Shown here: positions 31,701 to 45,070 of the stretch, one piece after another
Layout of the letters: every line of letters starts with the position of its first letter
How positions within the stretch are numbered: the stretch's first letter is position 1
NCBI GenBank assembly: GCA_902800625.1
Contig: CADCFG010000004.1
Location: 52,816 to 116,815 of the forward strand
Direction: 5' to 3'
Length of the DNA: 64,000 nt
From: an uncultured Eubacteriales bacterium
Lineage (GTDB): Bacteria > Bacillota > Clostridia > Christensenellales > Aristaeellaceae
Notes under the pieces: model-generated
Told to the model about the DNA's origin: nothing
Databases searched by the model: none
What the model saw: the letters and a program-made list of their open reading frames with translations, nothing else
Made by a program: the position numbers and the translations under genes

Positions 31701-33758
31701 TGGGACGAGGTGGTCTGCAAGATCACAGACAGAAACGGCACGCTCCTCTACATGAACGGCAGTCCCGCCGTCTATAGCTCTCTGAAGGATGGGTTTGAGG
31801 CCTATAATGCTGCCGGCACATATGATTTCACCTACCGCAGTGGCGGCAGAGCTACTGCGCGCAGAATCGAGATGCTGGTCGACGAGCATGAACTCGGCGC
31901 GGGGGTCGAGCTGAACCGAGGCAAGACCGTCATGTTGACGACCGCGCCCAAGAGCGACACGGACGGCTATGCGTACACAGGCGAAGACGGCACCGTGTGC
32001 GTCATCACGAGGGGCGAAGGCTGCACCGGCAGCATGATCACCAATCATTCCAACCTGACGCTGATGAATATCACCCTGGACGGTGACGGTCACAGGGATG
32101 GGCGCGACGATGACCTCGTTATCATCACCGACGGCGGCATCGTCAAAAACGCGCAGACCTCAGCCGTGCTGACGATCGCCGAAGGCGCGACGCTGCGCAA
32201 CTCCTTTGTGGAAGGAAACGGCGGCGCAGTCAATGCGATTGCCGGAACGACGGTTTATCTCACCGGCGGCACGATCAGCGGCAATAGCAGCGGCAAGACG
32301 GCCGGAACAGATGGCGGCAATGGCAATGGCGCGGGCATCTACCTTGCCAAGGGCAGCAGGCTCTATCTCTCCGGCGATCCGAGCTTTGGCGACAACTTCA
32401 GCGACGCGGAATTGCCTGAGAACGCCAAGAACGGCGGCGAGACATATTCAAAGGCACGACAGGACATCTATCTTGCCGGAGCCACGGGTGAGGGTGAAGC
32501 GCTGACGTCCATTACCCTGACCGACAATCTTCCCGACGACTATCCGGCAGGCTCGATCTGGGTATGGGCGGAAGGCAGTTACAACACTGAGCCCAACCAC
32601 TACTACATGCTCAAGCAGTTCGCCGTGGTTTCCTTCACCAAGCCCATCTCAGAGGCAACGTGCAAGGCTTTCAGGAACGCAAGGGCCGATGTGGACACGG
32701 ATTGCGGCGGAGATTACCTGACGGGCCAGACCGGGGATGACATCGGAACAACCAGGTGTCTCTACTGGACCGGCGGCTTCGACTTCGCCTTCCGGAAGAT
32801 CAACGGCCAGGGCGAAGCGTTGAACGACGCGACGTTCACGCTGTACACGTCCGCGAAGACCGATGATGGCAAGCTGCTGGTGCCGGCCATGAAGGATCCA
32901 AAGGGCACCCCGATCGTTGATCCTTACGCCCCGGACCTGAATGCTGACGAATGGAATGCTTACCAGCAGCAGAACAACGACGCCACGGGCACCTCGGCGT
33001 ATATCGCCGCGACAAACGCCGTGACCATCAAGGCGTTCGTCGCAGGGAATAAACCTGTGGACCGTGCTGTCTACGGCGATGGACTGGTGGTATTCGAAAA
33101 GATCCCGCCGGGAAATTACTTCATGGTGGAGACGACCAAGCCCAATACCTGGAATTCTCTCTTCGATGTGTACTGGGTTTACGTGGATGGCTCCGGATGG
33201 ATCAGCATTTCCGGCGTGAAAAAGGACGTTTCCGGCAAGTATCAGTGGCCGAACGCGACGGAGGATATCACTGTGCCTGCGGACAAGCCCACGGTCGACT
33301 TTACGAAGAAGGGTTCCGATGATAAGTATACAGTGGCCGCTTCTGGGAGTACGGGGACGCTGAAGATCTACAACATCATGAACGTCTCCACCCTGGAACG
33401 CAAGGTCATCCTCAAGAAGGTCAACAGTGGAAACGCGCCGCTGAAAGACGCGATGTTCACCGTGTACTACGCGGACAAGCAGACGGTGGTGAAGGTCAGC
33501 GCTAAGGACAGTTCCGGCAATATCACCACAAAAGAGCTGAAGGATCTGACTTCCGGCGCGACCGGCGTCTACTGGATCGGCATGCTGCCTTGCGGCACGT
33601 ATTACATCCACGAGACAAGCGTGCCCGACACCGTGAAGCAAAGCACGGATGGCTGGTGGTACACGCTGAAAGTGGAGATCAGCGACAGCAACGGCGGCAT
33701 TACGGTCAGCACGCAGCGCACCACGATCGAAGAACAACCGCAAAACGGCAATTCATAA
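13749..33758 (+). CDS. Giant (6,669 aa) secreted or surface multi-domain protein with no recognisable C-terminal anchor
   Basis: Single uninterrupted 20,010-nt ORF with an AGGAGG RBS. Signal-like N-terminus (RFSLAYFGRLMSCLLALSLILNSF). Acidic PT-rich linker. MBG-like repeats (KxYDG / KxYGEDDP) at ~15907-16385 and 18661-20150. Cna-B/SpaA-like domains at ~16790-18650, 28440-29270 and 32775-33755. Listeria/Bacteroides-type repeat (TLYAQW). Five parallel beta-helix modules rich in NGGAIY/GGGLY (Pmp/PbH1-like) turns. The C-terminus ...TTIEEQPQNGNS has no LPXTG tail, SLH domain or TM segment. Confidence 0.9.
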   Translation: MRHPTRNTNTYGARPRGGSRFSLAYFGRLMSCLLALSLILNSFTFTVEDFGVAIAQTADTAEYGADVLEEEEKAVEELQDVDLGLEEGNDQETADQDAYLFNAGYDSEFLFSRIMDDAKLPIKKVKDVEMISVMGSLDEQDPDSKQETGEALYVEPILNDKNEISDYSITALRFFEEAGLMVYTADDYYTVRLWRPDDAAKEMEKRAQQAQALPEETEEPVPEATAEPVYEIGAAWPERLGTVLESVGLPIKPTEVENVAVLGDGDGEPDPLTVEAVDGDYLISVTRDFDEARLALYLGEEVCVLTLINGIGAEPVEETEVDVPEEPEADPVDEAVEEPVKETEIDLPTEDETETTEEIDEVEEPTEELTEETEVELIAEPTAEPTEEPTVEPTEEPTAEPTEEPMLEPTEEPTAEPAPEPTEEPEADLVEEPTEAPTVEPTEEPTPEPTEEPTEVAYPAQHFTGSTVFVRVDVDAPEGAFPEGATMAVKPVWNSDTIADFTDAVSADNMEVDRCLVVDITFYDADGNEIEPLAPVAVEMSMAARMNEEQEALVAHMDDTGAVELMEQTEVAESTGSRVAMSVEIGTEQTEVEYKQTEVGDADETTVAFDADGFSMYALMLARYTVDFHWGDYIYNIEGEGEITLSSLLEKLGVTEITSADVANVTFSNPEYIAIEQLDSDWLLRSLAPFSTEEALTLTLQNGQSVEIKVTDEQQEEPAPTPVTNLVYNGQPQALVTNVEGGTYLYALVENGETAPENNVSWNTTVPSATDAGTYYVWYKADGSDAAAQCVTAAIARMPLTITADSAEKAYDGSPLTKDTYTYTKPAEGDTMQSVTISGSQEHMGSSDNVPSAAVINNTSNEDVTANYDITYVNGTLTVTWPENMVAKELTAFNGNLATYTITVNPAGDVMTGGQNYIVKDTFSRNQSINYGSVTVSPEENVTYDFSEQTGTYTIPDGAKVTITYTTRVAGQVGKPANFYNTAVVGSMGDSGFVPGPTATVNETRTISPTGTDISGTGGVYSIDLFAYADGHMERGLSGAEFRLLDSNMRPMHYLAGENAGKEIKFTTGEDGTVTIRLNHESDGLAIQKNTVYFLEMATAPYEEINGENVYYQKDDTFYSFLITDEPSYKYGDIYSYFNGDVLKVRCYPEAEGINVTKRFSGNYTLTDEQKNAITFTLQKEAQYTASGWVDVESHTYADFSYGSINFNTGRKGGTELEDFATYRIIEEHARPEALADTIDENVSVTVSYQQGGKRVTENSNEFTVDPDEKLAFSYDFAFTNEYVDHKLTLIKIDENTGAPIPGAIFSVYTADNTETTVATYTTGKDGSITIRRSDEGAGYAPDTLYYVVESKAPEGYVLPADPEKIYFYFSENGGGVPAGLPSGKTATDLTTSYNTVTLPNSSASVNVPVTAVWGVGTENISKVVVGLYKSVGGATAEKVLDNNSEALTLELTKEKYYDTTTFVNLPAQEDGKNIVYSVVVKGVFAPDDADITTQFAQSVSVSGTGWYVVKNEPAVSVVVQKQWFEQDGTTPVSDTSGRAAVTFDLYRTTTEAEGNFNRAELVAFLADAEKVRTGLTLSKESWSTTIDSLQSKDRQDNTYYYYALENPIPDNQEDSYLVAPAVDSAPRTLTIKNTQTPVTVTIKAGDLTKTYGDEDPKYPLTASVMQDEASAVITGPDASGHYTATVTDPQSESKTIKFTVSRDEGENVGAYTITPTGEASQAGYRVLFETGKLTISSAEVTITAGASKVYGEDDPALVTVTGLKNNETAGSGDSDTVKYTVSREEGEDVGDYPITLTGESDQGNYRVTYDSSNAVFRIGRAQATVTANAASKVYGEDDPELTATVTGLQRGDEASVLNYELTREAGENVGTYSITSAGEAEQGNYTVTYAPAEFTITPAALTVKVVNTEKTYGDEDPEWEVEIDGLYRDEEGGTLNSVLDEATGVRTYTYTLSEGDEAVSLLTFTITRTAGESVGNYPLTPTGAETQGNYTLTFEPGTLSIERAELFVTADHVVKAVGVETDPLLTATVTGWKNGDDPLEDTTLFSTETDENGTVTRTYKRGSGAAEVTFLVISSVGADGTVTWTYKRGDTALLTFTLKRDASEEEGEYPITVSGGQNQSNYSVEYEQGSFGILSILDVDVKQPVIDYADTDAAPSYTYTAKLDLTGTGLVEYEKNGFTRVDGVPTLTFTLPDENKADTMTLKVPGGAKLTVEQTSTNDDYDTALSLDGNPYTNPNNAALCILEHVDTYHEMAFTHSRISYPVEARVSETQSEEGAKKLEGRKGAMGIPTGDELTRAIDADFADDMHSKIGYVLPTDKYYMYDHASLYTAAGEAIEGASHVSAIKYDRENAKWQYKVGEGDFVDAPENAQLVLFYLPKFVCKIGTEKFYSLRAAVDYVVNNAETNGTTATIEMLIGDYTIRSSNDAVTIPEGYTITITTAQTEYEGEGTAVISRSMNYTAGHLFYNDGRLTFDNIILDGKNVQATDALVLNRDANSVLTVNAGATMQNAKGVNGGAIYVKNGTVTVNGTLTNNEATNGGGAVYVKAGTFTIGASGKLSGNSAMTGGAVYVDDGTVNIVGTIGGTGAESNTATIGGAVYINKGTVSVTGSVIGNTAENGGAVYQVGGTLTVNGSMAQNTASVNGGAVYLSNGTLTNNGTIDGNSATGNGGAVYQVGGTLSNEGTISGNNASNGGGIYRVGGTLTVGGILSGNEADEEGGAIHSTNGTLNVNAAVTGNHAATGGAVYVSGATLNINGGSFSQNTATANGGAVYALNSTTRIGSADAEVTVENNTSEGNGGAVYMEGGSVTVENANSTLTGNSAINGGGIYATSGAITVDNGRLESNEATANGGAIYAESASVTVNGGVLGGTGKGNKANQGNGGAIYAGSGTVTVSDGTLSGNSAGRGESEDTTLGLGGAIYAGTGTVNYTGGAINGGNSAVNGAAIFVGSGIANVSASITGNTATNGGAIGVGGTSARLNFKGSAEVNNNTMNGAQSNVYLDVDSELVVNADSLNNGKKIGIYVPGDVNGDQVVKHGDVTGYFGAYVSAGTLANIPNVFKSDRFSDLKVAYENNRVYWISELKYDIYYLKNYTTSKFPPTSNYLTESTKVCSNKDYAPRTRTSDIYDLVMAMKLYEKHVTDFENKVDKTKYASLAVYAYTFSDKAMGNNFENYLKTIRWDGTARKWMYDKQDGTTAPADTTKLVIFYSAPAYLTIVNNNTSNLELDISGLTVLGKDATDGVYGFVTAKNGATVTTLRTLTADDLKLGVGDSIKLMFPGAQGQSFTIRGEFVGSGEGEIKYTFNGGAEQTISGTTVDLSSYSLNTNDEAAELVFGDALPICKIGNEPFSTLKAAMDYAVAQKAATGSNTYKIEMLVDYLVPKDDVLDIPDGYNITFTTADRDAETLPYTGNGTRATLSRDTGNSGSSVSATNSILTVDNLAFDGRSLTAGGKGGAISTTNCATVTITNSEFKGYRADNGGAIYVDNRNAGSSLTVEHCDFSNCQTNASVDKAGGGALWTTARELYVRNCTFDFCACLKGNAQAGSIFHNIRSGWASNSKTVISDCTFSNSYSVGGSGGTIETDALDVTIENCRFRGSYTNKSKGNGGAINALAGDTGASGSEGYIGTYNSDCWLTVRNCLFEECRAANSGNGGAIVSSMWYVTIENCKFDNCQSKYGGAIKMTNGNAKWLHINGSTFKNCTAADVGGGVHAAVPSIEIKKSNAGKFLDNTDNDGSTHFIDCVANRGGGIDNNKDGATVTMENVDFNRCAARSSNGGALYTKAQTLSITGDANTFTDCTGYGSGGAVYQLRNADKSSVTLENCTFTGCEANNNGNGGGLYANAMTLTVNYDTANDSAIEGAKGSFVNCTAANAGGGLYHDYAGTAKIANCGFEGCTAKTTTGGGLYTSAHTLKIIGVDSKFKNCTAQTDGGGLYHNRDANGSTLTFKDGSFESCTATGNYGGAIYTKVKGTVTLEGGTVKDSTAKAQGGGIYFANGNTASFDSCTITGNTVTNSDSKGGGVYVAGGTTTYKSGTVSGCSAAYGGGWYQNNGNLYILGGSISGSATVNGGGLYINDSKAWVRQYSGTVAGTAAGNGGGIYENAGNYTIGDATYEGTAYSGASVGTVTVDEGGSPVYTATAVNGGGIYQNTGTIYQNAGSRIVGQASANGGGLYVGGALQFNGGLITNCMASANGGGIYYASTTSDLNFYADADSKIQNCRAANGGGVYMNSAKTFHIGQKDQNSIGTIENCHATANGGGLYQTSGTCNLRNASIIQDCTAVANGGGVYHAGGTFNIYGTSRIEHCKAEDNGGGLYSAGGILTFEGGSIIRNMAEENGGGVYHAGGTFNMTSKGAVIGGSTENANTANVGAGVFVADGQTATFSDNSAKALEISYNHAVTAGGGIAVGGPNALLDFYYMVTVRHNTMGSQNAECNVYLDQNRNTVIKNKDLNVNAYIGVYTSDAQDAGHGVPGKPFATYNNTNNLNVYHNDRRPYLYGMKGSSNNEVIWPEFVCKINDGEGNLLYKDANGTPAVYSELENIGASGAFSALNTSATPDLYRLNEDGTYSKYTDEARDGYQVQMLVQEYALGSGRQIKLDQSVERKIVLTTASTDKDECGFGYTGDARFAATIKRTAPTSAMVFVGGGNQWELTLSNITLDGNEQAATQEGAILRIENKGTAILGDGATLQNGLTANKAGGAVYLNDTGCAFTMNAGSQIKDCSAGTSNGGAVAVNNGTFTMNGGSSITGCSAANGGGVYLNNSGRIVMNGGTITGNNATSQGGGIALVHGNSRATFSDYCIVTDNTLNGTTRCNVQFNQDNNLLINANGLDGRSEIGIYTAGLESNTGSIYYKHGLSGKPFGTWAVNEDNLFCFVNDRSTNLRGFQSAKETDTRIFWEYHPLLTVTKDVSSDLSADKNTAEFTFQVQLPAGSFDKNSTKYGDMTFNKTGLATVKLKAGQSATAILPDTFDKVAYDVTEVLSEDQSEDYTATAERNGTAYPFTEAKPLTVSGTLGENIGTENSTSLSEVVFTNTRATGDLTVSKQVISEVEDDKEESFAFTLTLKDTGISKTYKTIKKDAENNATEGTLTFTAGVSDAFSLKHGESLTIKGLPTDLEYTVEEKLTDAQKAQIRTQVSKNRSEPVYAVKQEGTIGEHSTTTTVEDEEKTVYASEVAFINNFLEIVCKITNRSRALLYYRDAAGNLQPAIFAHLEDAFDQINSGNLRTSSNGTVSGQLRIEMVVPQYTMERTATLNSGKTVLLSTALPSDADYPYNKGESDGDNISTVYRGFEKGGMIVDNGALTIDRIVLDGGGTSAATTANGGIVCVAGRVRLTVNSDAKLQNSVTSGNGGAIWLGSGASLTMNGTISNCSAASGGGVYASNGFTTITTTGTITGCKATSGDGGAIYASTGTSVNLNAGTALTGNTATGNGGAVYTGANLILRGSVGGIGTDEGNTADGNGGGIYMGEGTTFTMYAGSSVSGNTATNGGGLATLSTARIAGGTLQGNEANQKGGAVYATADAAVTISGAPVLTQNKAALGGAVYDGGTVTMTGGTMTGNTATEKGGAVYVEAGRRFTMSGGTIKDGNKSPEGAVSTAANATLAFSGNAVVSGNTDSDGTTAKNVYLGHDSNAIITSSGLGSSANIGVYVANGKPETSDSSDPNYRADHVNNPIYADHGVSGRDFGTYTGSNLSGAKLNKFVNDRDPSLTGMSGSVADGTQYIAWIGKGLELQVTQYLIQTDEDGNPVLDDDRNPVLSEKQVPVQNASFTFTRADGVQVWSGKSGKDGIVTIPWGGNETAGGNVASFVPGSVYRLDQTAAAEKTVLPAGHWKVTIGRDNSVTWEMVPVEGAVDRTLEIVLPEKAYLGETFGLKNDVKPTLTYNAMNGKLSDGRGERTDTIAFTTKETSHSYEIRETNPTRESHVFKAWATMDKKPEGEKDAELTEEELTAKGYFEYAREDNITFYRGTDSADPAVKYAQSISKGDMTLYAQWDEVVCKITDRNGTLLYMNGSPAVYSSLKDGFEAYNAAGTYDFTYRSGGRATARRIEMLVDEHELGAGVELNRGKTVMLTTAPKSDTDGYAYTGEDGTVCVITRGEGCTGSMITNHSNLTLMNITLDGDGHRDGRDDDLVIITDGGIVKNAQTSAVLTIAEGATLRNSFVEGNGGAVNAIAGTTVYLTGGTISGNSSGKTAGTDGGNGNGAGIYLAKGSRLYLSGDPSFGDNFSDAELPENAKNGGETYSKARQDIYLAGATGEGEALTSITLTDNLPDDYPAGSIWVWAEGSYNTEPNHYYMLKQFAVVSFTKPISEATCKAFRNARADVDTDCGGDYLTGQTGDDIGTTRCLYWTGGFDFAFRKINGQGEALNDATFTLYTSAKTDDGKLLVPAMKDPKGTPIVDPYAPDLNADEWNAYQQQNNDATGTSAYIAATNAVTIKAFVAGNKPVDRAVYGDGLVVFEKIPPGNYFMVETTKPNTWNSLFDVYWVYVDGSGWISISGVKKDVSGKYQWPNATEDITVPADKPTVDFTKKGSDDKYTVAASGSTGTLKIYNIMNVSTLERKVILKKVNSGNAPLKDAMFTVYYADKQTVVKVSAKDSSGNITTKELKDLTSGATGVYWIGMLPCGTYYIHETSVPDTVKQSTDGWWYTLKVEISDSNGGITVSTQRTTIEEQPQNGNS
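14687..15115 (+). repeat. Acidic Glu/Pro/Thr-rich linker with tandem EPTEEPT(A/V) units, inside the giant ORF
   Basis: ...AEPTAEPTEEPTVEPTEEPTAEPTEEPMLEPTEEPTAEPAPEPTEEPE...; imperfect tandem gagccgacc/gaacctacc units. Confidence 0.8.
16790..18650 (+). other. Block of Cna-B / SpaA (prealbumin-fold) type domains in the giant ORF
   Basis: GAEFRLLDSN...GEDGTVTIRL...YFLEMATAP; LTLIKIDENTGAPIPGAIFSVY...GKDGSITI...YYVVESKAPEGY; VPVTAVWG...VVVGLYK; VVVQKQW...VTFDLYR. Confidence 0.6.
18661..20150 (+). repeat. Array of about 6 MBG-type repeats (YGDEDP/YGEDDP ... GNY(R/T)VTY)
   Basis: LTKTYGDEDPKYP, ASKVYGEDDPALV, ASKVYGEDDPELT, TEKTYGDEDPEWE, each followed by ...GEN/DVG.Y.IT..GE..QGNY.V.Y.. Confidence 0.7.
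20889..22990 (+). other. Beta-helix module 1 of the giant ORF
   Basis: Opens FVCKIGTEKFYSLRAAVDYV...IEML...ITITTAQ...LTFDNIILDG. About 25 NGGA(I/V)Y turns. Closes SNVYLDVDSELVVN...KIGIYVPGD...RVYWIS. Confidence 0.7.
23763..27265 (+). other. Beta-helix module 2, the largest, with Cys-containing PbH1-type turns
   Basis: Opens ICKIGNEPFSTLKAAMDYA...IEML...ITFTTAD...LTVDNLAFDG. Repeated F.NC.A....GGG.Y turns. Closes CNVYLDQNRNTVIKN...YIGVYTSD...EVIWPE. Confidence 0.7.
27273..28435 (+). other. Beta-helix module 3
   Basis: Opens VCKINDGEGNLLY...VQMLVQEY...IVLTTAS...LTLSNITLDG. Closes CNVQFNQDNNLLIN...EIGIYTAG...RIFWEY. Confidence 0.65.
29280..30910 (+). other. Beta-helix module 4
   Basis: Opens VCKITNRSRALLYY...IEMVVPQY...VLLSTAL...LTIDRIVLDG. 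Closes KNVYLGHDSNAIIT...NIGVYVAN...QYIAWIG. Confidence 0.65.
31713..32775 (+). other. Beta-helix module 5, the shortest
   Basis: Opens VCKITDRNGTLLYM...IEMLVDEH...VMLTTAP...LTLMNITLDG. Closes QDIYLAG...SIWVWAE...RCLYWTG. Confidence 0.6.
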
Positions 33759-34014: not shown

Positions 34015-34638
34015 ATGATGAATATGAAGCGAAAGCTGCGCTCCAACCGGGGCGCGTCCATCACCTTCGCGCTGCTGATCTTCCTGGTCTGCGCCATCGT
34101 CAGCGGCGTGGTCATCGTGGCGGCCAGCACTGCCGGCGGCCGCATGAGCGGCATGAAGGAGACCGACCAGCGCTATTTCGCGGCAACCGCCGCGGCGCAC
34201 ACGCTGCAGGAGATATTTGATGGGCAAACAGTGGTTATCACTTATAACAAGATTGGCGACACTTACACGTTGGTCAGCGCAGTAAATAATAGTGATGGCT
34301 CTGCTATTACCGACGACATTTTAAAGAACGCCTGTTGGGCGGTAGTCACTGACGCAAATTACGAGAAGAAGTCCTGGTCTGCTGCCAACGTGGTGTCGGA
34401 TACGGAGGTTTATACATGTACCGTCGAACAGCAACCTACAAAAGGTACGCTGGAATTCATCATAAGTGCTGTAGGTGGATCGAATCTTAATAAGGGGACG
34501 TATACATTGGATATTCTGTTTACGCCAAACCTGAAAAGACCAGAAACAGGAAAAAGCCTTTCTAATGTAAAAGCAATCGTCACATGGTCGCTGAACAGCC
34601 TCTCCAGGGGACAGGCAAGTCAGAAAACAGGAGGCTGA
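34015..34638 (+). CDS. Pilin-like protein lacking Glu5 (PilX/minor-pilin-like N-terminus)
   Basis: Start trimmed to MMNMKRKLRSNRG/ASITFALLIFLVCAIVSGVVIV (GAGGGAGG RBS): basic leader, Gly, ~20-aa hydrophobic helix. The 3' two-thirds is visibly AT-rich. Confidence 0.65.
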   Translation: MMNMKRKLRSNRGASITFALLIFLVCAIVSGVVIVAASTAGGRMSGMKETDQRYFAATAAAHTLQEIFDGQTVVITYNKIGDTYTLVSAVNNSDGSAITDDILKNACWAVVTDANYEKKSWSAANVVSDTEVYTCTVEQQPTKGTLEFIISAVGGSNLNKGTYTLDILFTPNLKRPETGKSLSNVKAIVTWSLNSLSRGQASQKTGG

Positions 34639-34645
34639 TGAAGCA

Positions 34646-34876
34646 ATGATGAAGAAAATCAAAGCCAAGTTACGCGGCAGGGCGGGGGAATCCATCGCTG
34701 AGACGCTGATCGCCACGCTGATCGCCGCGCTGGCGCTGGTGATGCTGGCGGGGGCCGTCGCTTCCGCCGCGCGGATCATCACCACCAGCCGGAAGGCGAT
34801 AGAGGAATATCAGTCAGAAGCCGGGAACATTGAGGGACAATGGCAGACGTTGATGAGCGACACCCTGAACCCGTAG
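34646..34876 (+). CDS. Very short (76 aa) prepilin-type protein
   Basis: MMKKIKAKLRGRAG/ESIAETLIATLIAALALVMLAG: class-III-like leader with Glu at +5. AGGAGG RBS. Confidence 0.55.
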   Translation: MMKKIKAKLRGRAGESIAETLIATLIAALALVMLAGAVASAARIITTSRKAIEEYQSEAGNIEGQWQTLMSDTLNP

Positions 34877-34923
34877 GTCAAACCGTAGAATAGAAGTATT
34901 ATGATATAGCGAGGTGAAGCACC

Positions 34924-35523
34924 ATGAAAGCCAGAAAAAAACTGAATAGCCGCGCCGGCTTCACGCTGGCGGAGACGCTGCTGGCGGTGCTGATCCTGCT
35001 GCTGGTTTCCACGATCGTGGCCACGGGCATGCCCGTGGCGCGGACGGCTTATGAAAAGGTGGTGCTGACCAGCAACGCCGAGACGCTGCTCACCACGGCA
35101 GTCTCCGCCCTGCGCAACGAACTGGGCACGGCCTGGAAGGTGGAACAGCCGTCCAATAATCATGTGACATATTTCAGTGCATCTACCGGTACACGGGCAG
35201 AGTTGTATTTGGATGGAGAAAACAAAATCAAGATTTTAGATTATGCCGGGGCAACCAGCCTGGATGCTCTGCTGGGCACCAACCAGAACAAGGCCGCGAC
35301 CACGGCCCGCGACCTGGTGTTCCAGTCCGACATCGACCGGCTGGGCAAGCTGACACTGAAGGCCGGGAGCATCACGCTGGACAAGGCCACCGGGAAAGTG
35401 AGGATCAGCGGCATGAAGGTGTTCAGCGCCAGCAATGTGGAGCTGGCTTCGCTGGGTGATTCCTCGGATGATTCCTCGGATGATTCATTGGTAATTTCCG
35501 TGTTCTCCTGCGAAGGTGCCTGA
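34924..35523 (+). CDS. Type IV prepilin (199 aa), canonical G/FTLAE N-terminus
   Basis: MKARKKLNSRAG/FTLAETLLAVLILLLVSTIV. The C-terminus carries SSDDSSDDS. Confidence 0.8.
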   Translation: MKARKKLNSRAGFTLAETLLAVLILLLVSTIVATGMPVARTAYEKVVLTSNAETLLTTAVSALRNELGTAWKVEQPSNNHVTYFSASTGTRAELYLDGENKIKILDYAGATSLDALLGTNQNKAATTARDLVFQSDIDRLGKLTLKAGSITLDKATGKVRISGMKVFSASNVELASLGDSSDDSSDDSLVISVFSCEGA

Positions 35524-35582
35524 CGGGCGGCGGAAAACTGCGCATAAATGATCGAATTCGACCGAACAATGGCGGTGGATAT

Positions 35583-38108
35583 ATGATGAGAAAAAACAAT
35601 AGACGCGGCTTTACCATGGCTGAGCTGCTGATTGTGGTGGCGATCATCGTCATCCTGACCGGCGTCAGCTTTGTCGCCGTGCAGGCCCACCAGAAGAATC
35701 TGGCCCAGCTGGAGGCGGATACCGTCGCCAAGGAGATCTTCTTTGCCGCGCAGAACCACCTGACCATGGCCGAGGGCCAGGGCTACCTGGGTGACACCAT
35801 CAATTACGGCACGCCCACCAGCTACACCCATGATGACGGGACCACCGTCACCGACAACGTATACTATGTCACGATGAACACACCGGGTTCCTTCCCGGCC
35901 AACAGCATTCTGAACCAGATGCTGCCCTTCGGTTCCATTGACGATACCATCCGTGCGTCGGGTAACTATGTCATCCGCTACCAGTCCAAGCCCGCGCGGG
36001 TGCTGGACGTGTGGTATGGCCGTCGCACCAACGAGCTGTACGCTGGCCGTTACGACGCCGATCCCTGCGGGATCACCATCGACAAACTCGCGAGCCACAG
36101 CTACGACAGCAAGGTCGTCGGTTGGTATGGCGGCGACGAAGCCCTGGAGGGCGGCGCGATCCTGAACGCGCCCTATATCGAGGTGGAAAACGCCGAGCGG
36201 CTCATCGTGCGCATAAAGACCGCGGACGTCAACAAGGACCCGAAGACCGGCAATGAGATCAAGGACGCCGATGGCAATGCCGTTTCCGTCTCCGTCAAGC
36301 TGATCATCCGGGGCAAGACCAGCGGAGCCATGGCGGCCATTCCCGTGCTGCCCGACCAGAACCAGCGCGTGAAGGCATCGACGACCGATGGCTTCGATTA
36401 CGACATCATACTGGACGACATCACCATGGCCTATGACTCGGGGCGCAAGGATGGCGGCCACTTCGCGGACATTACCACCGACATGGCCTCCACGACCAGC
36501 ACCACGGTGCCGGCCATCGACGTGCTGGCGGGCACGGCATTCATCCCCGGCGAAAACATCACCGTGCAGGCCGTGGCCTTCAGCAACACCGCCCTGGCCA
36601 GCATCGACTACAGCAACGAGTGGACCACCAACAGCCTGTTCGCGGACGTGGAGGACGAGGGCGCAGTGGATTCCGAAGGCGTGCCGCCCGCGGGTAAGAT
36701 TGCAATGATCTCCAACATGCGCCACCTGGCCAACCTGGACAAGCTGGTCTCCGGCGTGAACACGACGGGTACCGATAAGCTCATTATCGTCGAAGCCCGC
36801 CAGACCGCGGATTTGGTATGGAAGTATACCGATACGACCTATACTCCCACCGATGATGACCCGAAGGCCTTTACCGCTGCCATCCCCAACGCCTGCATCT
36901 ATAAGAAGGGCGAGTCCACCCACACAGACGAGGGCTGCTGGCTGCCGGTGAACATCGACTATGATCTGATCTATGAGGGTGCGGAGCCCGGCGACGCAGA
37001 TGCCGCGGACGACGCGGACAAGGTCGCCCGGAGCCACAGCATCACCGGCGTGAAGGTTTCCGCGAAGGACGGCAACCCGGCTGGCCTGTTCGGCACGGTG
37101 GGTGCAAATGTCACGATCCGCAACATGGAGCTGATCGACTTCGACATCACCGCCGCCTCCGGCAACGCCGGCGCGCTGGCGGGCACGCTGTCGAATCCCG
37201 ACGGCGCGAAGGTGACGGTGGAAAACGTGCTGGCCCGGAATACAGACAGCTTCGACAAGCTCGAAACTGCCACGGTGAAATCCGGCTCCGGCGCGGCGGG
37301 AGGCCTGATCGGCAAGACGACTGGCGCGGACGTCAACCACTGCGCCGCGGCCCTGGTGGTCGAGAGCACCAATGGCAACGCAGGCGGCCTGGTGGGCGAG
37401 AGCAACGGCGGCAGTATCAAGGCCAGCTATTCCGGCGGCCACACCAACGCGCACAGCTATTACAAGAACGGCGCGGCGATCTACAACGTCACCGCCGGTG
37501 GGTGCGCGGGCGGCCTGGTGGGCAATGTCGGCTTCGTCAACATCGACCACTGCTATTCCACTTGCTCCGCCTCCGGCGACACCGCGGGCGGCCTGGTGGG
37601 CAGGACGGAGGGCCCCGTTGAGAACAGCTACGCCACCGGCCTCGTGAACGGCACCAACGCCGGGGCCATCGCGGGCAATATCCTTTCCAGCAAGCAGTTC
37701 GTGAACTGTCAGTACCTGGAGATCATCAACGAGATCACGACCGGCGGCGCGGTCAGCTATTTGCCGCCCGCGCCGAACTGGGCGCCGTCGGACGAGACGG
37801 ACGTTCCCGCCGGTTCCGTGAAGCTGACGGGCGTCAGCCGCGCGGATTACAGCGCCGCCAGCTACGCCGATTTCTCCGGTGCGAAGGTGGACTGGAAGGA
37901 CGCCATCAGCTACGATGGGACGCTGATCAATCTGTATAATGTGGAGAGCGACAGCGGCGAAAAGCAGCCGAAGTACAACTTCAATACCGTGGAACAGCTG
38001 GGGGACGTCGCCGTCGTTGCAGAGGCGGACGAGACCGACCCGGTGGACTTCGTCGCCACGCATTACGGCGACTGGCCCGCGCCGGAGACCCTGGTCGTGA
38101 ACGAGTAA
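35583..38108 (+). CDS. Giant modular type IV prepilin (841 aa) with a C-terminal GLUG-repeat module
   Basis: MMRKNNRRG/FTMAELLIVVAIIVILTGVSFVA is a textbook class III signal plus alpha1-N helix. At ~37030-37700 there are seven G-L/I-x-G turns: AGLFG, AGALAG, AGGLIG, AGGLVG x3, AGAIAG (GLUG-motif-like). Confidence 0.8.
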   Translation: MMRKNNRRGFTMAELLIVVAIIVILTGVSFVAVQAHQKNLAQLEADTVAKEIFFAAQNHLTMAEGQGYLGDTINYGTPTSYTHDDGTTVTDNVYYVTMNTPGSFPANSILNQMLPFGSIDDTIRASGNYVIRYQSKPARVLDVWYGRRTNELYAGRYDADPCGITIDKLASHSYDSKVVGWYGGDEALEGGAILNAPYIEVENAERLIVRIKTADVNKDPKTGNEIKDADGNAVSVSVKLIIRGKTSGAMAAIPVLPDQNQRVKASTTDGFDYDIILDDITMAYDSGRKDGGHFADITTDMASTTSTTVPAIDVLAGTAFIPGENITVQAVAFSNTALASIDYSNEWTTNSLFADVEDEGAVDSEGVPPAGKIAMISNMRHLANLDKLVSGVNTTGTDKLIIVEARQTADLVWKYTDTTYTPTDDDPKAFTAAIPNACIYKKGESTHTDEGCWLPVNIDYDLIYEGAEPGDADAADDADKVARSHSITGVKVSAKDGNPAGLFGTVGANVTIRNMELIDFDITAASGNAGALAGTLSNPDGAKVTVENVLARNTDSFDKLETATVKSGSGAAGGLIGKTTGADVNHCAAALVVESTNGNAGGLVGESNGGSIKASYSGGHTNAHSYYKNGAAIYNVTAGGCAGGLVGNVGFVNIDHCYSTCSASGDTAGGLVGRTEGPVENSYATGLVNGTNAGAIAGNILSSKQFVNCQYLEIINEITTGGAVSYLPPAPNWAPSDETDVPAGSVKLTGVSRADYSAASYADFSGAKVDWKDAISYDGTLINLYNVESDSGEKQPKYNFNTVEQLGDVAVVAEADETDPVDFVATHYGDWPAPETLVVNE

Positions 38109-38160: not shown

Positions 38161-39909
38161 TTGGCAATCATAGGCAATAACGGGAAAAAGCCGGCGGGCA
38201 AGGGCTACCTGCGCCTGGGCGACCTGCTGATCTCGGCGGGTCTGATCACCGAGGAACAGCTGGAGGAAGGCCTGCGGCTGCAAAAGGGCAGCGGCAAGCG
38301 CCTGGGCACGGTGCTGCAGGAAAACGGCATCATCACCGAGACCGACCTGATCGAGGCGCTGCAGATGCAGCTGGGCATCGAGTTCATCGACCTGAGCAAG
38401 GTGAATATCCCCACGGAGCTCGTTCAGATGGTGCCCAAGAACATCGCCAAGCAGTATCAAGTGGTGCCGGTGCGCCTGAACCGGGACGAGCTGTACATCG
38501 CCATGAGCGACCCGCTGAACTTCTATGCCATCGAGGAAGTCCGCAAGGCCGCCCGGCGCAAGATCGTGCCCATGGTGGCCATGTCCGCCGCCGTGGAGCG
38601 TGCCATCCAGGTGCTCTACGGCAATGAGGGCGCGGCCAAGGCCATCGAGGAGATGAAGCGCGAGGCTGCCGCCTCCGGCGAGACCACCGTCGCGCTGGAC
38701 AGCGCTTTCACCGCCAACCAGGTGGGCGAGGAGAACGTGAACCAGGCCCCGGCCATCCGGCTGGTGAACGCCATCATCGAGCGCGCCGTCACCGAGCGTG
38801 CCAGCGACATCCACATGGAGCCGAGGGAGACGGAGTTCTCCGTGCGTATGCGCATTGACGGCCTGCTGCGCGACATCCTCACCGTGCCGCGGGAGCTGCA
38901 GGCCGCCGTGATCAGCCGCGTGAAGGTCATGTCCGGCCTGGACATCACCGAGCGCCGCGTGCCCCAGGACGGCCGCTTCAACGTGAAGGTTCGCGACAAG
39001 GACATCGACCTGCGTATTTCCACGCTGCCCACCGTCTACGGTGAAAAGATCGTAGCCCGACTGCTGGACAAGTCCGGCCGGAAGCTGAGCCGCGATTCCA
39101 TCGGCCTGACCGGCGACGATTTGGAGAAGTACCTGCGCCTGGTGAAGATCAAGAACGGCGTGATACTGATCGTCGGCCCCACCGGTTCCGGTAAGTCCAC
39201 CACCATGTATACCATGATCGGCGATATGAACACCCGCGACGTGAACCTGGTTACCCTGGAGGACCCGGTGGAGTACAATATCGATGGCGTCAACCAGGTG
39301 CAGATCAACGAGAAGGTGGGCATGACGTTTGCCAGCGGCCTGCGCTCCATACTGCGCCAGGACCCGGACATCATCGCCGTGGGCGAGATCCGCGATGGCG
39401 AGACGGCGGAGATCGCCATGCGCTCGGCCATCACCGGCCACGTGGTGCTGTCCACCCTGCACGCCAACGACGCGCTGGGCACGGTGGAGCGCCTGATCGA
39501 CATGGGCGTGGAGCCCTATCTGGTAGCCAGTGCCCTGAAGGGCGTGTTCAGCCAGAGGCTGGTGCGCCGCATCTGCCCCAACTGCCGCCAGGCCTATGAA
39601 CCCACTGAGGAGGAACAGGCTGAGTTGGGCCTGGAGTATATGCCCGGGCGCACGTTCTACCGCGGCACGGGCTGCCCCGAGTGCTTCGACACCGGCTATC
39701 GCGGCCGTACCGCTGTGTTTGAGATATTCCCCTTGTCCGTGCAGGTGCGTCGCCTGATCTCCAAGGGCGCCGGGCGCGACGCCATCGAGGCCATGCTGAA
39801 GGCCCCGGGCAGCGGCTTCGTCTCTCTGCGGGAGAACGCCATCCGCCTGGTGGAGAACGGCACCACCACCGCCAGCGAGCTGCTGCGCGTGATCTATGAG
39901 GATATTTAG
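38161..39909 (+). CDS. pilB: Type IV pilus assembly (extension) ATPase PilB/GspE family with an MshEN-type N-terminus
   Basis: 582 aa from a TTG start. N-terminal tandem RLGxxLIxxGLI....L...L..Q motifs, Walker A GPTGSGKSTT, CPNC...CPEC tetracysteine. Confidence 0.9.
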   Translation: MAIIGNNGKKPAGKGYLRLGDLLISAGLITEEQLEEGLRLQKGSGKRLGTVLQENGIITETDLIEALQMQLGIEFIDLSKVNIPTELVQMVPKNIAKQYQVVPVRLNRDELYIAMSDPLNFYAIEEVRKAARRKIVPMVAMSAAVERAIQVLYGNEGAAKAIEEMKREAAASGETTVALDSAFTANQVGEENVNQAPAIRLVNAIIERAVTERASDIHMEPRETEFSVRMRIDGLLRDILTVPRELQAAVISRVKVMSGLDITERRVPQDGRFNVKVRDKDIDLRISTLPTVYGEKIVARLLDKSGRKLSRDSIGLTGDDLEKYLRLVKIKNGVILIVGPTGSGKSTTMYTMIGDMNTRDVNLVTLEDPVEYNIDGVNQVQINEKVGMTFASGLRSILRQDPDIIAVGEIRDGETAEIAMRSAITGHVVLSTLHANDALGTVERLIDMGVEPYLVASALKGVFSQRLVRRICPNCRQAYEPTEEEQAELGLEYMPGRTFYRGTGCPECFDTGYRGRTAVFEIFPLSVQVRRLISKGAGRDAIEAMLKAPGSGFVSLRENAIRLVENGTTTASELLRVIYEDI

Positions 39910-40022: not shown

Positions 40023-41075
40023 ATGACAATGACCATTGAACAGCTTGTCGCCAAGGCGCGAGAAGACCACGCTTCCGATATTCACCTGATCTGCGGCTTG
40101 CCGCCCAAGTACCGCAAGGACGGCCAGCTGGAGAACATGACGGACACCCCGCTGACCGCCAGCGATTGCTCGGCCTATGCCCGCGAGCTCGCGGGTACGC
40201 CGGAGAATTACGACATCTATCTGCAGACCGGCGAGTTGGACGCGGCAGAGACCTACGCCGGCAACCGCTGCCGTATCCATATCTTCCGCCAGCAGGGCCT
40301 GCCCTCCGTGGCGCTGCGCCTGCTGTCGGACCGCATCCCCAAGCTGGACACCCTGGGCCTGCCCCCGGCGGCGCTGAAGCTGCCGGACCTGCACAAGGGC
40401 ATCGTGCTGGTCACTGGCGAGACCGGCTCCGGTAAGTCCACCACGCTGGCGGCGCTGCTGGATTACATCAACCACACCCGCAAGGCCCACATCGTCACCC
40501 TGGAGGACCCGGTGGAGTACATCTATACCCCCGACAAGTGTGCCATCAACCAGCGCGAGGTGGGCAAGGACACCCTGTCCTTCGCGGCGGGGCTGCGCGC
40601 CAGCCTGCGCGAGGACCCGAACGTGATACTGATCGGCGAAATGCGCGACCGGGAGACCATCGAAACCGCCATCACCGCCGCCGAGACCGGCCATCTGGTG
40701 TTCGGCACGCTGCACACCGGCAGCGCCTCCGACGCCGTGGACCGCATCGTACAGGTGTTCCCCGAGGGCATGCAGGTGCAGATCCGCCTGCAGCTGTCCA
40801 TGTGCCTGCAGGCCGTGCTGACCCAGCAGCTGATCCCCAAGAAGATGGGCGGGCGCGCGCTGGCCTGCGAGATGATGGTGGTCACCGACGCCATCCGCAA
40901 CCTGATCCGCAACGGCAACACCCCGCAGATCGCCAACGCCATCGCCACCAGCGCGGCCATTGGCGGCCAGACCATGGACCAGGCCCTGGTGCGCCTGGTG
41001 CGCTCGGGCCAGATTACCCGCGACATGGCGCTGACCTTCGCCCACGAGCCGGATTATGTGAAGAAGAACGCATAG
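40023..41075 (+). CDS. pilT: Type IV pilus retraction ATPase PilT
   Basis: 350 aa. ASDIHL..., Walker A GETGSGKSTT, AHIVTLEDPVEY, GEMRD, LVFGTLHT. Confidence 0.9.
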   Translation: MTMTIEQLVAKAREDHASDIHLICGLPPKYRKDGQLENMTDTPLTASDCSAYARELAGTPENYDIYLQTGELDAAETYAGNRCRIHIFRQQGLPSVALRLLSDRIPKLDTLGLPPAALKLPDLHKGIVLVTGETGSGKSTTLAALLDYINHTRKAHIVTLEDPVEYIYTPDKCAINQREVGKDTLSFAAGLRASLREDPNVILIGEMRDRETIETAITAAETGHLVFGTLHTGSASDAVDRIVQVFPEGMQVQIRLQLSMCLQAVLTQQLIPKKMGGRALACEMMVVTDAIRNLIRNGNTPQIANAIATSAAIGGQTMDQALVRLVRSGQITRDMALTFAHEPDYVKKNA

Positions 41076-41109: not shown

Positions 41110-42330
41110 ATGCCCCAATACAAGTATACCGCCGTCACCAAGGACGGCAAGAAGGTCTCCGGTCTGATCGAAGCCTTCAACGAGCTGGACGCCGCCACCA
41201 AGGTCAAGGAGTCCTATTCCATCGTGCTGCAGCTGGGCGAGGTACAGGAAAAGAGCAAGGCCGCGGCCTTCCTCAGCATGGACCTGGGCGGCAACAAGCT
41301 GGACGACAAGGCCTTCATGCTGATGTGCCGACAGTTCTCCGTTATCCTCAAGGCAGGCGTGCCCATCCGCCGTACGGTTGAGCTGATCGCCGACAAGATG
41401 ACGGACAAGACGCTCAAGCGCATCCTGGAACAGGTGGTCGAGGACGTGGAGGGCGGCCGCTCCCTTGCGGCCAGCTTCGAGGAGCGGGGCGGGAAGATCC
41501 TGCCCGTCACCTTCCTGGAGACCGTGCGCGCTGGCGAGGAGGCCGGCAGCCTGGATTCCGCCTTTGAGTCCGTCAGCGAGCACTATGCCAAGCAGAGCAA
41601 GATGAAGGGCAAGGTGCGCGGCGCGCTGATCTATCCGGCCTTCGTGCTGGTGGTGGCCATCGTGGTCGTCATCGTGCTGATGGTGAAGGTGGTGCCCACG
41701 TTCACCGCCATCTTCGACAGCTACGATGCCGAGCTGCCCATTCCCACCCAGATTCTGATCGCCATGTCCAACTTCTTCAGCCACAACTGGATGATCCTGG
41801 CGGCGGTGGCGGCGGCCATCGTGCTGGGCTTCAAGCTCTATGGCAACACAGAGGCAGGGCGCATCAACCTGGCCAAGCTGCAATTAAGGCTGCCCGTTCT
41901 GGGCAACATCGCGGTGCTGAACGCCGCCAGCCAGTTTGCCAACACCATGGCCATGATGATGGGCGCGGGCCTGCCGATGACCAAGGCCGTTACCATCACC
42001 AGCCGCGTGCTGGACAACTATTTCATCAGCCAGCAGGTGGGCAAGATCACTGCCCGCCTGGAGGAGGGCTACACCCTGGGCCACAGCATGCGGGAGGCCG
42101 ACTGCCTGCCGGACATCCTGGTGGACATGACCGCCGTGGGCGAGGAGAGCGGCGAGCTGGAGCAGACGCTGGGCATGACCGCCGAATATTACGATACCGA
42201 ATTGGAGCAGGCCACCGCCGCGGCGCTGGCCAAGCTGGAGCCTACGGTGTTGGTATTCCTGGCGGGCTTCGCCGGATTCATCGTCATCGCCATCTATATG
42301 GCCATGTTCGGCATGTACGCCGCGATGTGA
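41110..42330 (+). CDS. pilC: Type IV pilus platform protein PilC/GspF
   Basis: 406 aa, MPQYKYTAVTKDGKKVSGLIEA... Duplicated GspF domains, 3 TM segments. Confidence 0.9.
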   Translation: MPQYKYTAVTKDGKKVSGLIEAFNELDAATKVKESYSIVLQLGEVQEKSKAAAFLSMDLGGNKLDDKAFMLMCRQFSVILKAGVPIRRTVELIADKMTDKTLKRILEQVVEDVEGGRSLAASFEERGGKILPVTFLETVRAGEEAGSLDSAFESVSEHYAKQSKMKGKVRGALIYPAFVLVVAIVVVIVLMVKVVPTFTAIFDSYDAELPIPTQILIAMSNFFSHNWMILAAVAAAIVLGFKLYGNTEAGRINLAKLQLRLPVLGNIAVLNAASQFANTMAMMMGAGLPMTKAVTITSRVLDNYFISQQVGKITARLEEGYTLGHSMREADCLPDILVDMTAVGEESGELEQTLGMTAEYYDTELEQATAAALAKLEPTVLVFLAGFAGFIVIAIYMAMFGMYAAM

Positions 42331-42341
42331 TCGCCGGGGTG

Positions 42342-43043
42342 ATGAACGCTATGAACAAGTTGCGCGCGCGCCGGGGCGGGATTCCCCGGGTGATGGCGGT
42401 GCTGCTGGCGCTGATCGCCGTGATGCTGGTGATCATCGCCCTGCCCAGCCTCCAGAGCTTTTCGGAGCAGAGCCAGAGGATCGCCTGCGAACAGGCGCTG
42501 GCCTCCGCGCGGGACGGCCTGATCATCGAGTATTTCAACAGCTTCCAGGCCGGCTCCACCCAGGATGCCATGAACACCCTGGACGTGGTGATGCCCGCCC
42601 GGCCCAACATCTGCCCCTCCGGCGGCACGGTGTATCTGGTGCGAGGGGCCAACGGCATCTTCGAGCCCGTCTGCGGCCTGCATGCGCCGGATGGAAAGCA
42701 GCGCTGCCGGCTGAACGCCAGCCGGGCCAGGGAGCTGCTGGAAAGCAGTCTCACCAAGGCGAAGAAGAAGAGTACTACGGCGCCGGAGAGCGTGAAGATC
42801 GCGCTGAATGGCCAGATGCTGGAATGCGACTTGGTGGACAAAGCCGTGCGCCTGCGCCGGGGTACCGCCACTTCCAACGATTATGAGGGCGTCGTGGCCT
42901 TCTACGGAATCGCGGGGGAGGGCGAATTTCCCGTCAAGGGCGTGAAGGCGGGCGAGCTTTACTACTTCATCTATGCCGACGAGGACCACTGCGCCGTCTG
43001 GCGTGCGGACGACGGCTGGACGGGCGACGCCTACCAATATTGA
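42342..43043 (+). CDS. Membrane-anchored Cys-rich protein of unknown function; pilin-like leader without Glu5
   Basis: MNAMNKLRARRGG/IPRVMAVLLALIAVMLVIIAL, then a soluble domain with 5 Cys (RIAC, NICPSGG, PVCGLH, QRC, EC). Start uncertain: GTG 42327, ATG 42342 or ATG 42351. Confidence 0.55.
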   Translation: MNAMNKLRARRGGIPRVMAVLLALIAVMLVIIALPSLQSFSEQSQRIACEQALASARDGLIIEYFNSFQAGSTQDAMNTLDVVMPARPNICPSGGTVYLVRGANGIFEPVCGLHAPDGKQRCRLNASRARELLESSLTKAKKKSTTAPESVKIALNGQMLECDLVDKAVRLRRGTATSNDYEGVVAFYGIAGEGEFPVKGVKAGELYYFIYADEDHCAVWRADDGWTGDAYQY

Positions 43044-45005: not shown

Positions 45006-45070
45006 TTCAGGGCGGCCTGCGAAGCGGGTTGGAAGATGTGTGAGTTTAAATCTCACTGGAGGTAAGAATA

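Follow-up and report, generated by a model that had tools for sequence, protein, structure and literature searches.

A large modular pilin-like protein with a predicted GLUG beta-helix in a type IV pilus locus of an uncultured Eubacteriales bacterium

Introduction

What might a protein of 841 amino acids (aa) that begins like a type IV prepilin do in front of a set of pilus assembly genes? The question is raised by a stretch of 64,000 nucleotides (nt) from an uncultured Eubacteriales bacterium, a member of the Clostridia from the ruminant gut (GenBank assembly GCA_902800625.1, contig CADCFG010000004.1, positions 52,816 to 116,815), the whole of which is referred to here as the window. The protein, termed p841, had been proposed in an earlier note on this DNA to be a modular type IV pilin, in which a class III signal peptide is fused to a module of GLUG repeats, and profile searches and a structure model had been named there as checks. 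How type IV pili adhere is still little understood. The best explanation at present is provided by modular pilins, of which only PilB and PilC of Streptococcus sanguinis have been characterised. These two proteins, which carry a von Willebrand factor A (vWA) module and a lectin module, respectively, define the category (PMC8179133; PMC9934059). In 2021, Raynaud et al. recorded 264 architectures of modular pilins and considered an 860-aa pilin an 'extreme case' (PMC8179133).

The analysis of p841, its neighbours and its relatives reported here bears out the proposal in its main line. Hidden Markov model (HMM) matches, a structure model, fold matches and a full pilus locus with its own PilD all point the same way, and p841 is very probably a modular pilin-like protein with a GLUG beta-helix. 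That it is a minor pilin sitting at the tip of a type IV pilus and acting there as an adhesin is the favoured overall reading, and is put forward as reasonably probable, with lower confidence than the modular-pilin identity itself.

Results

p841 has the N terminus of a type IV prepilin

The p841 gene and the segments of its product are as follows.

35583..38108, + strand: p841 open reading frame (ORF), with an ATG start, 841 codons and a TAA stop
35583..35609, + strand: leader peptide MMRKNNRRG (residues 1-9, Gly-1 last), read from the sequence and followed by the mature part from 35610
35610..35780, + strand: alpha1 helix (residues 10-66) with Phe+1 and Glu+5 (E14); helix at 12-66 by DSSP
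35781..36164, + strand: putative pilin head (residues 67-194), with four strands after alpha1, the last being an invariant GWYGG strand
36165..36677, + strand: beta-sandwich region (residues 195-365), immunoglobulin (Ig)- or fibronectin type III (Fn3)-like, all-beta by DSSP; the extra module starts here
36678..37742, + strand: right-handed beta-helix (residues 366-720), from Pfam Glug, Foldseek and seven turns
37743..38105, + strand: C-terminal alpha/beta domain (residues 721-822) and conserved tail, by DSSP, with a predicted local distance difference test score (pLDDT) of 90-96 up to residue 830

A Shine-Dalgarno-like GGTGGA is located 5 nt 5' of the p841 start codon. The N terminus of the product reads MMRKNNRRG/FTMAELLIVVAIIVILTGVSFVA, giving the signature G/FTMAE, and the mature protein would be 87.2 kDa with an isoelectric point of 4.4. 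A six-frame scan detected only five prepilin-like N termini in the window, of which that of p841 scored best. The earlier note had regarded this signature as the most canonical in the locus, and the profile searches agreed, with p841 scoring 26.5 bits against Pfam N_methyl (gathering score 21.2) and 22.4 bits against NCBIfam TIGR02532 (cut-off 16.3).

Conservation within the p841 family was found to be strong in this region. Glu+5 (E14) is invariant across 92 aligned homologues, the signature G/F-T-M-A-E, in its looser form G/F-T-x-x-E, is kept at 71 loci, and the C-terminal half of the helix (alpha1C) carries an invariant AAQNH motif. Overall, alpha1 is among the most conserved parts of the protein, with a mean top-residue frequency of 0.8. 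Comparison of the family profile with the PDB matched alpha1 to the alpha1 of solved pilins with E-values from 1.8e-7 to 5e-3, including Geopilin (1.8e-7), PilA (9.6e-6), 3sok (over residues 10-83), PilE and others. Judged by its sequence, the alpha1 part of p841 is unquestionably pilin-like, and cleavage by PilD after Gly9 together with methylation of Phe10 would be expected.

The extra module lies behind the pilin module and contains a GLUG beta-helix

An AlphaFold2 model of p841 was generated from an alignment of 92 full-length homologues with 41-93% identity to p841 (alignment A1), and had a mean pLDDT of 89 and a predicted template modelling score (pTM) of 0.78. In this model alpha1 is one unbroken helix of 55 residues (12-66 by DSSP; 12-65 in a model of the N-terminal part only). 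The strands of the putative head lie at approximately 93-98, 129-134, 139-146 and 179-183 in both the full-length and the N-terminal models, and residues 1-199 modelled alone (pLDDT 84, pTM 0.75) showed a secondary structure unchanged from that of the full model. Since the last of the four head strands ends before residue 184 and the 1-199 segment folds independently, the extra module is, as modelled, grafted behind the pilin module and not inserted within it.

Seven turns of the GGLxG type were located in the extra module, at residues 500 (AGLFG), 529 (AGALAG), 572 (AGGLIG), 600, 642 and 668 (AGGLVG) and 693 (AGAIAG), corresponding to nt 37080-37676. Only 0.09 such turns would be expected by chance, and none of 20000 composition-preserving shuffles reached seven. 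Pfam Glug (PF07581) matched in two stretches at 21.9 bits (gathering score 20.5), the glycines of the GGLxG motif are invariant across the family alignment, and the model is at its firmest here, with a pLDDT of 94-98 across residues 480-700. When the model was compared with the PDB using Foldseek, the top match was 3n6z (E 2.5e-7, probability 1.00, TMt 0.57), followed by the Streptococcus pneumoniae IgA1 protease (7uvl_P, E 1.1e-6; 6xja_P, E 1e-3). By sequence, the beta-helix region gave no match in the PDB, where the family profile reached pilin alpha1 only.

The seven GLUG turns described in the earlier note are therefore real, given the Pfam score and the shuffles, and the structure model that it named as a check predicted a beta-helix that superposes on the GLUG structure 3n6z. 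The turns are, however, not evenly spaced as had been stated, the gaps being 29, 43, 28, 42, 26 and 25 aa (range 25-43). The description of the extra part as a GLUG module holds for its helix, but this makes up only about a quarter of the added mass, the remainder including further beta-sandwich and C-terminal domains.

For these further domains, Foldseek gave weak matches to Fn3/cytokine-receptor sandwiches in the PDB (E 0.009-0.1), which probably correspond to residues 195-365, while a search of BFVD returned only generic Fn3 and beta-helix proteins of phages and giant viruses. The tail (residues 823-841) displays an invariant H-x-G-D-W-P-x-P-E at 827-835 and a top-residue frequency of 0.87; H827, G829, D830, W831, P832 and P834 are invariant in the family. 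Along the protein as a whole, alpha1 and this tail are the most conserved, the GLUG helix comes next, and the remaining parts vary most.

A GLUG-type beta-helix is also part of the pneumococcal IgA1 protease, where it forms a non-catalytic N-terminal domain that touches the Fab of IgA1 and controls access to the active site; the HExxH motif and catalytic residues of that enzyme lie in its middle and C-terminal domains, outside the helix (PMC7695701). No HExxH motif is present anywhere in p841, and a Pfam scan at E<=1 gave no Peptidase_M26_C, Pectate_lyase, Beta_helix, peptidase or other catalytic family, so that an identity of p841 as an M26 protease was ruled out. Within the beta-helix, H620 (nt 37440-37442) and T660-C661-S662 (nt 37560-37568) are invariant in 92 sequences. 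They occupy equivalent positions on adjacent rungs (ASYSGGHT and HCYSTCSA), and H620 and C661 are thus expected to be neighbours in space.

The module is repeated in longer relatives

Relatives of 1380-2100 aa were identified (P0019, P0121, P0122, P0123, P0124 and P0031, with P0121 at 2102 aa and P0123 at 1617 aa), each of which has a single pilin N terminus. In these proteins the segment equivalent to residues ~195/230-840 of p841 is repeated two or three times, with the repeat boundary at NAERL (position ~203 in p841), and every copy ends in H-Y-G-D-W. Tandem repetition behind one pilin N terminus indicates that the module is self-contained, which fits the definition of a modular pilin; on this evidence it is a unit of ~640 aa comprising the Ig-like domains, the GLUG beta-helix and the C-terminal domain. 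In the 231 family sequences the module was not encountered on any protein other than a pilin. At up to 2102 aa, the P0121-type relatives would be the largest pilin-like proteins described.

The p841 family is large and is found mainly in ruminant-gut Clostridia

At least 573 homologues of p841 were recovered by a word-indexed search. HMMER was then run exhaustively against 1.84 billion representatives of clusters formed at 50% identity and gave 2395 matches with E<=1e-3, of which 1193 had E<=1e-10 and 667 had E<=1e-30; the majority are 730-900 aa long and aligned from end to end. From species-representative genomes, 77 p841-type loci were collected, nearly all in metagenome-assembled genomes (MAGs) from the gut of cattle, sheep, goat, deer, buffalo and yak. 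Their taxon labels are Oscillospiraceae, Ruminococcaceae, Lachnospiraceae, Christensenellales, Butyrivibrio, Blautia, Mogibacterium and similar, with one Eggerthellaceae; the locus closest to p841 (85% identity) is in RUG11065.

Family members are nameless in the source databases, with the one exception of a 'type II secretion system protein'. The class III signature is present in 193 of the 231 family sequences, and nearly all of the other 38 had been called from the internal methionine of FTMAEL, a few being fragments. A start at this methionine removes the leader together with Gly-1 and Phe+1, and pilin censuses based on N_methyl will consequently undercount the family. Such gene calls include P0008, P0015, P0019, P0023 and about 30 more, and the precomputed Pfam field of these entries often lacks N_methyl.

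p841 is the last gene of a four-prepilin cassette

Three further prepilin-like genes precede p841, which is the fourth and last gene of the cassette.

34015..34638, + strand: p215, prepilin-like, RG/ASITF, first cassette gene (signature, synteny)
34646..34876, + strand: p76, small prepilin-like protein, G/ESIAE (ORF, signature)
34924..35523, + strand: p199, canonical prepilin, G/FTLAE, third cassette gene (N_methyl, signature)

The order p215-p76-p199-p841, on one strand, is kept in approximately 67 of the 77 loci; taken singly, p199 is present in 67 of the 77 and p76 in 58. In the window the genes are separated by gaps of 7-59 bp, and a promoter/terminator scan found no + strand terminator inside the cassette. 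The signature of p215, G/ASITF, has no Phe+1, and Glu+5 is missing in all 67 orthologues (67/67); p76, p199 and p841 all retain Glu+5. In 57 orthologues of p76 the signature is G/E-[ST]-I-x-E, with glutamate at both +1 and +5. An acidic +1 residue is unusual among the substrates of prepilin peptidases.

The three smaller proteins were also compared with known families. A per-member Pfam scan detected N_methyl in 62 of 65 p199 orthologues, and Pfam and PDB profile searches with these 65 sequences found nothing beyond it. For 62 p215 orthologues, per-member scans and profile searches gave no consistent Pfam or PDB match. NCBIfam returned only sub-threshold matches for the cassette proteins, all confined to alpha1: GspH (20.5 against a cut-off of 80), XpsI (16 against 150) and ComGF (18.2 against 80).

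Four prepilins of which one lacks Glu+5 form the pattern of the GspH-I-J-K, FimU-PilV-W-X and ComGD-G tip or priming sets, and by analogy the p841 cassette may work like a minor-pilin tip set. Tip subunits of the GspK type, like p215, have no Glu+5. Most cassettes (over half of the total) lie away from the pilus machinery. Several p841-type cassettes can occur on separate contigs of one genome, as in MAGs RGIG4894 (L006, L017, L070, L076) and RUG12424 (L007, L009), and in RGIG4894 the order is permuted to a giant gene, the p841 homologue and then p215.

Pilus machinery follows p841 in the window

Directly downstream of p841 and on the same strand is a set of pilus assembly genes, a linkage also present in approximately 20-26 related loci.

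38161..39909, + strand: PilB-type assembly ATPase (T2SSE 2.4e-129, with MshEN)
40023..41075, + strand: PilT-type retraction ATPase, 350 aa (T2SSE 2.4e-47)
41110..42330, + strand: PilC platform protein (T2SSF, two domains, 4.7e-56)
42327..43043, + strand: 238-aa membrane protein between pilC and pilD, its position kept in ~26 loci
43174..43974, + strand: PilD prepilin peptidase/N-methyltransferase of the A24 type (A24_N_bact 2.6e-28, Peptidase_A24 4.4e-11)
43986..46437, + strand: PilM, PilN-like and PilO/GspM-like alignment subcomplex (PilM_2 3e-22; T2SSM 6.8e-6, slightly under the cut-off)

The PilN-like middle ORF of the last group has no Pfam match and was named from its position alone. The 238-aa protein, which was without a match in Pfam or NCBIfam, begins with RGG/(V/I)NR followed by a hydrophobic stretch and has neither Phe+1 nor Glu+5; it may be either a pilin-like protein of unusual type or a bitopic part of the machinery.

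In ten related loci (L002, L015, L018, L026, L029, L036, L046, L048, L049 and L053) a canonical pilin of 114-133 aa after cleavage is encoded beside pilO or pilC. This small protein is the obvious major subunit. The N-terminal half of its alpha1 (alpha1N) reads FTLAELLIVVAIIAVL (FTLAELLIVVAIIAVLVAIAIP) and is almost the same as in p841, which would be expected if the two share one filament core.

A giant adhesin-like gene lies upstream of the cassette

Directly upstream of the cassette the window encodes the following protein.

13749..33758, + strand: 6669-aa adhesin-like protein with a Sec-type signal (MBG_2 x7, SpaA, Beta_helix, DUF7601)

This giant contains acidic PT-rich linkers and many NGGAVY-type beta-helix/PMP-like repeats, and neither an LPXTG motif nor any other recognisable wall anchor was found in it. 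Among the 63 loci with usable upstream sequence, approximately 35 have an ORF on the same strand that is longer than 2300 aa, extends beyond the retrieved flank and ends 23-240 bp before p215. Such upstream giants terminate in a SpaA-type domain and a low-complexity tail that lacks a sortase signal. Relatives of the C-terminal region of the window giant are encoded upstream in 44 of the 77 loci, and at L006, L017 and L070, which belong to a single MAG, the p841 homologue comes immediately next to the giant gene. The possibility that the giant and p841 share the module was ruled out, as a blastp comparison of the module with the 6669-aa protein gave nothing below E 0.3. In placement, and by adjacency alone, the giant and the cassette resemble pilY1 beside minor pilin genes.

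Sequence divergence was determined in a single pairwise comparison with the closest relative, L001 (for p76-p841, window 34646-38108 against L001 9096-12499). In this comparison p215 and the machinery are 94-99% identical (95-99% for the machinery genes) and p76, p199 and p841 82-87%, and the ratio of nonsynonymous to synonymous substitution rates (dN/dS) is 0.31 for p841 against 0.05-0.13 for the machinery (0.05 for PilB, PilT and PilC). The divergence of p841 is fastest at residues 366-480 and 721-822, and the upstream giant genes of the two loci differ. These values suggest that p76-p841 is a local hypervariable or recombining tract; coming from one pair, they are weak evidence for a faster turnover of the exposed parts of p841, a mode of evolution resembling that of surface proteins.

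Discussion

The favoured interpretation of these data is that p841 is a modular minor pilin in a tip complex. The A24 peptidase of the locus, PilD, would cut the nine-residue leader after Gly9 and methylate Phe10, and the hydrophobic alpha1N would hold the protein in the membrane. There, by analogy with GspHIJK, FimU-PilVWX and ComGD-G, p841 could form a priming complex with p215, p76 and p199 on PilB, PilC and PilMNO, with p215 placed at the very top since it lacks Glu+5. A small major pilin, encoded outside the window, would polymerise beneath, so that the complex would end up at the tip. The ~640-aa module, made up of two Ig/Fn3-like sandwiches, the GLUG helix and the C-terminal domain, would then project from the tip and bind a rumen ligand, for which a protein or glycan on plant fibre, on host mucus or on another cell is a candidate. 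Retraction by PilT could subsequently draw the cell to the bound target. Reach and specificity would be adjusted by the number of module copies (one to three) and by the rapid sequence change of the module.

Several observations weigh against this interpretation. A search of the literature found no experimental work on any member of the p841 family, and nothing in the p841 sequence points to a ligand. No major pilin gene is present in the 64-kb window. A Foldseek search of the PDB with residues 1-199 returned no pilin (best E 0.57), and the assignment of a pilin-head fold therefore comes solely from the order of the secondary structure elements and the sequence of alpha1. The three partner proteins p215, p76 and p199 show no significant homology to GspH/I/J/K, PilV/W/X, FimU or ComGD-G, which makes the comparison of the cassette with those tip complexes one of functional analogy and not of family membership. 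Finally, the invariant H620/C661 pair could be an enzymatic or metal site rather than part of a pure adhesin.

Many enzymes that act on polysaccharides are built on a right-handed beta-helix, and it could be that the helix of p841 is itself catalytic (a glycanase, lyase or peptidase with plant or host polymers as substrates) and that the pilin N terminus serves to display the protein or anchor it in the membrane. The weak BFVD matches include tailspikes of the 'pectate lyase superfamily', H620 and T660-C661-S662 stand on adjacent rungs, and Raynaud et al. took an architecture of N_methyl with IPR011493 for a peptidase (PMC8179133). However, the searches for an HExxH motif and for a catalytic family were negative, the best structural matches are 3n6z and a non-catalytic domain of the IgA1 protease, and the conserved residues may be purely structural, given that the Y-S/A-T/G positions belong to the repeat; an enzyme is accordingly regarded as improbable. 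A similarly low probability is given to a role away from a true pilus, in which the class III signal would serve only for PilD-dependent export and anchoring, comparable with the archaeal 'bindosome', or in which a short pseudopilus like that of type II secretion systems would push the giant through the wall. At 87 kDa, p841 is very large for passage through peptidoglycan on a filament tip, and both the lack of a detectable structural similarity of its head to solved pilins and the missing major pilin gene would be in keeping with such a role. Against it, an invariant Glu+5 and an alpha1N like that of a major pilin favour packing into a filament core, the locus encodes PilT, related loci have a canonical major pilin, and modular pilins of 50 kDa are a precedent in Gram-positive pili (PMC8179133).

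The giant neighbour allows another explanation, namely that p841 joins p215, p76 and p199 in a tip complex that mainly carries the upstream adhesin, with the GLUG/Ig module as a docking platform and not itself the adhesin. The cassette and the giant would then be a Gram-positive counterpart of 'minor pilins + PilY1', the GLUG pilin docking the giant on the tip of a retractile pilus. The frequent position of a giant ORF just upstream of p215, the wider occurrence of relatives of its C-terminal region and the immediate adjacency of the giant gene to p841 homologues in one MAG all fit this idea; the giants have a Sec signal and no recognisable wall anchor and so need a holder; the only GLUG beta-helix characterised so far has a protein as its binding partner (IgA1 Fab); and modular pilins have been likened to PilY1 by Raynaud et al. 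(PMC8179133). Nevertheless, nearly half of the cassettes lack an upstream giant, the C-terminal tails of the giants are not conserved beyond a generic SpaA-type domain and low-complexity sequence, and the window and L001 have near-identical machinery (97-99%) with different giants. The neighbouring adhesin genes may also merely reflect co-regulation, and this arrangement, both as a docking function of p841 and as a counterpart of PilY1 sets, is considered unlikely, if less so than an enzyme or a role away from the pilus. By far the least probable is that p841 is the major filament subunit. The signature of p841 is the most canonical in the window, where no small pilin gene occurs, but a globular part of ~780 aa cannot repeat at the axial rise of ~1 nm found in type IV pili, linkage of the cassette to the machinery is frequently missing, some genomes carry more than one cassette, and p841 as the major pilin was rejected on account of the small canonical pilins that adjoin the machinery in related loci. 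A modular minor pilin at the tip stays the preferred reading of p841.

With respect to novelty, the modular type IV pilin is a known category and p841 is not a new one: an IPR012902 motif (N_methyl) and Glug are found in one polypeptide, which is the domain criterion of Raynaud et al. for a modular pilin. The InterPro entry IPR011493 is taken here to be GLUG (PF07581). Dataset S1 of Raynaud et al. 2021 includes an IPR012902-IPR011493 architecture with six proteins, and in a single sentence of their Discussion it is treated as an M26 peptidase (PMC8179133). This entry is almost certainly the p841 architecture and probably the p841 family; p841 differs from the published description in having no M26 catalytic features, and the family comprises at least 667 clusters as against six proteins. 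The statement of the earlier note that a GLUG module on a pilin had not been characterised thus stands as regards experiment, no such study and no literature coupling GLUG with pilins having been found, but the combination, if IPR011493 is indeed GLUG, had been catalogued in 2021. In addition, ComZ, a pilin bearing a beta-solenoid, is cited as characterised by the same authors (PMC8179133). What is new here is the actual make-up of the module in terms of domains, the finding that it occurs in tandem copies, the existence of pilins of up to 2102 aa, and the size and habitat of the family, as well as the conserved four-prepilin cassette with its Glu5-less member and frequent giant-adhesin neighbour.

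In rumen Ruminococcus, a small major pilin links the type IV pili to adhesion to cellulose, and no large minor pilin has been reported for them; whether minor pilins both prime assembly and present cargo at the tip was flagged as an open question (PMC6916266; PMC3672088 for the pili, PMC6916266 for the open question). The p841 family is large and belongs to ruminant-gut Clostridia, in which pili are implicated in attachment to cellulose, making it a concrete candidate for the adhesive tip of such pili and for a step in fibre colonisation. A cassette with a Glu5-less subunit and a giant neighbour would likewise be a Gram-positive system in which to probe priming by minor pilins and the carriage of tip cargo. 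If the giant is docked by the GLUG pilin, interchangeable cassettes would provide ruminant-gut Clostridia with a repertoire of retractable grappling hooks of very long reach, able to catch plant fibre or other cells, and if the His620/Cys661 pair is an active site, p841 would be an enzyme delivered by a pilus.

Among known proteins, p841 can be compared most directly with S. sanguinis PilB and PilC, which also combine a small but full pilin module with a bulky appended module known from non-pilin proteins, are likewise encoded in a pil locus with other minor pilins, and share a predicted role in adhesion at the tip. In contrast to these, p841 has an unrelated module (neither vWA nor a concanavalin A-like lectin), is larger (87 as against 50 kDa), belongs to a family with up to three tandem copies, has no sequence similarity to them beyond alpha1N, and is known from sequence alone. 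The module itself has its structural counterparts in the N-terminal domain of the IgA1 protease (6XJA, 7UVL) and in BACOVA_03286 of Bacteroides ovatus (3N6Z, a 'putative IgA1 protease'), which share a right-handed beta-helix of the GLUG type. The G5, middle and catalytic domains of the IgA1 protease are absent from p841, and the helix is borne by a pilin and not by a wall-anchored protease.

Gram-negative minor pilins present the non-pilin adhesin PilY1, and CofB of enterotoxigenic Escherichia coli (ETEC) presents CofJ. As in GspH-I-J-K, FimU-PilV-W-X (with PilY1) and ComGD-E-F-G, the p841 cassette consists of four co-oriented prepilin genes, of which one product lacks Glu+5 and one is much larger, and as in the PilY1 sets a large non-pilin adhesin gene often stands beside it. 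It differs from the GspHIJK-type sets in that the Glu5-less protein, p215, is not the large member, the adjacent adhesin has no PilY1 beta-propeller, and the organisms are Gram-positive and have no secretin. Thermus thermophilus ComZ and ETEC CofB, the latter with beta-repeat and beta-sandwich domains, are, like p841, large minor pilins with beta-rich extra domains and are thought to be located at the tip; neither was among the Foldseek matches of p841 in the PDB. The solenoid of ComZ, which binds DNA, is inserted in the pilin beta-sheet, whereas the module of p841 is C-terminal, repeatable and not inserted.

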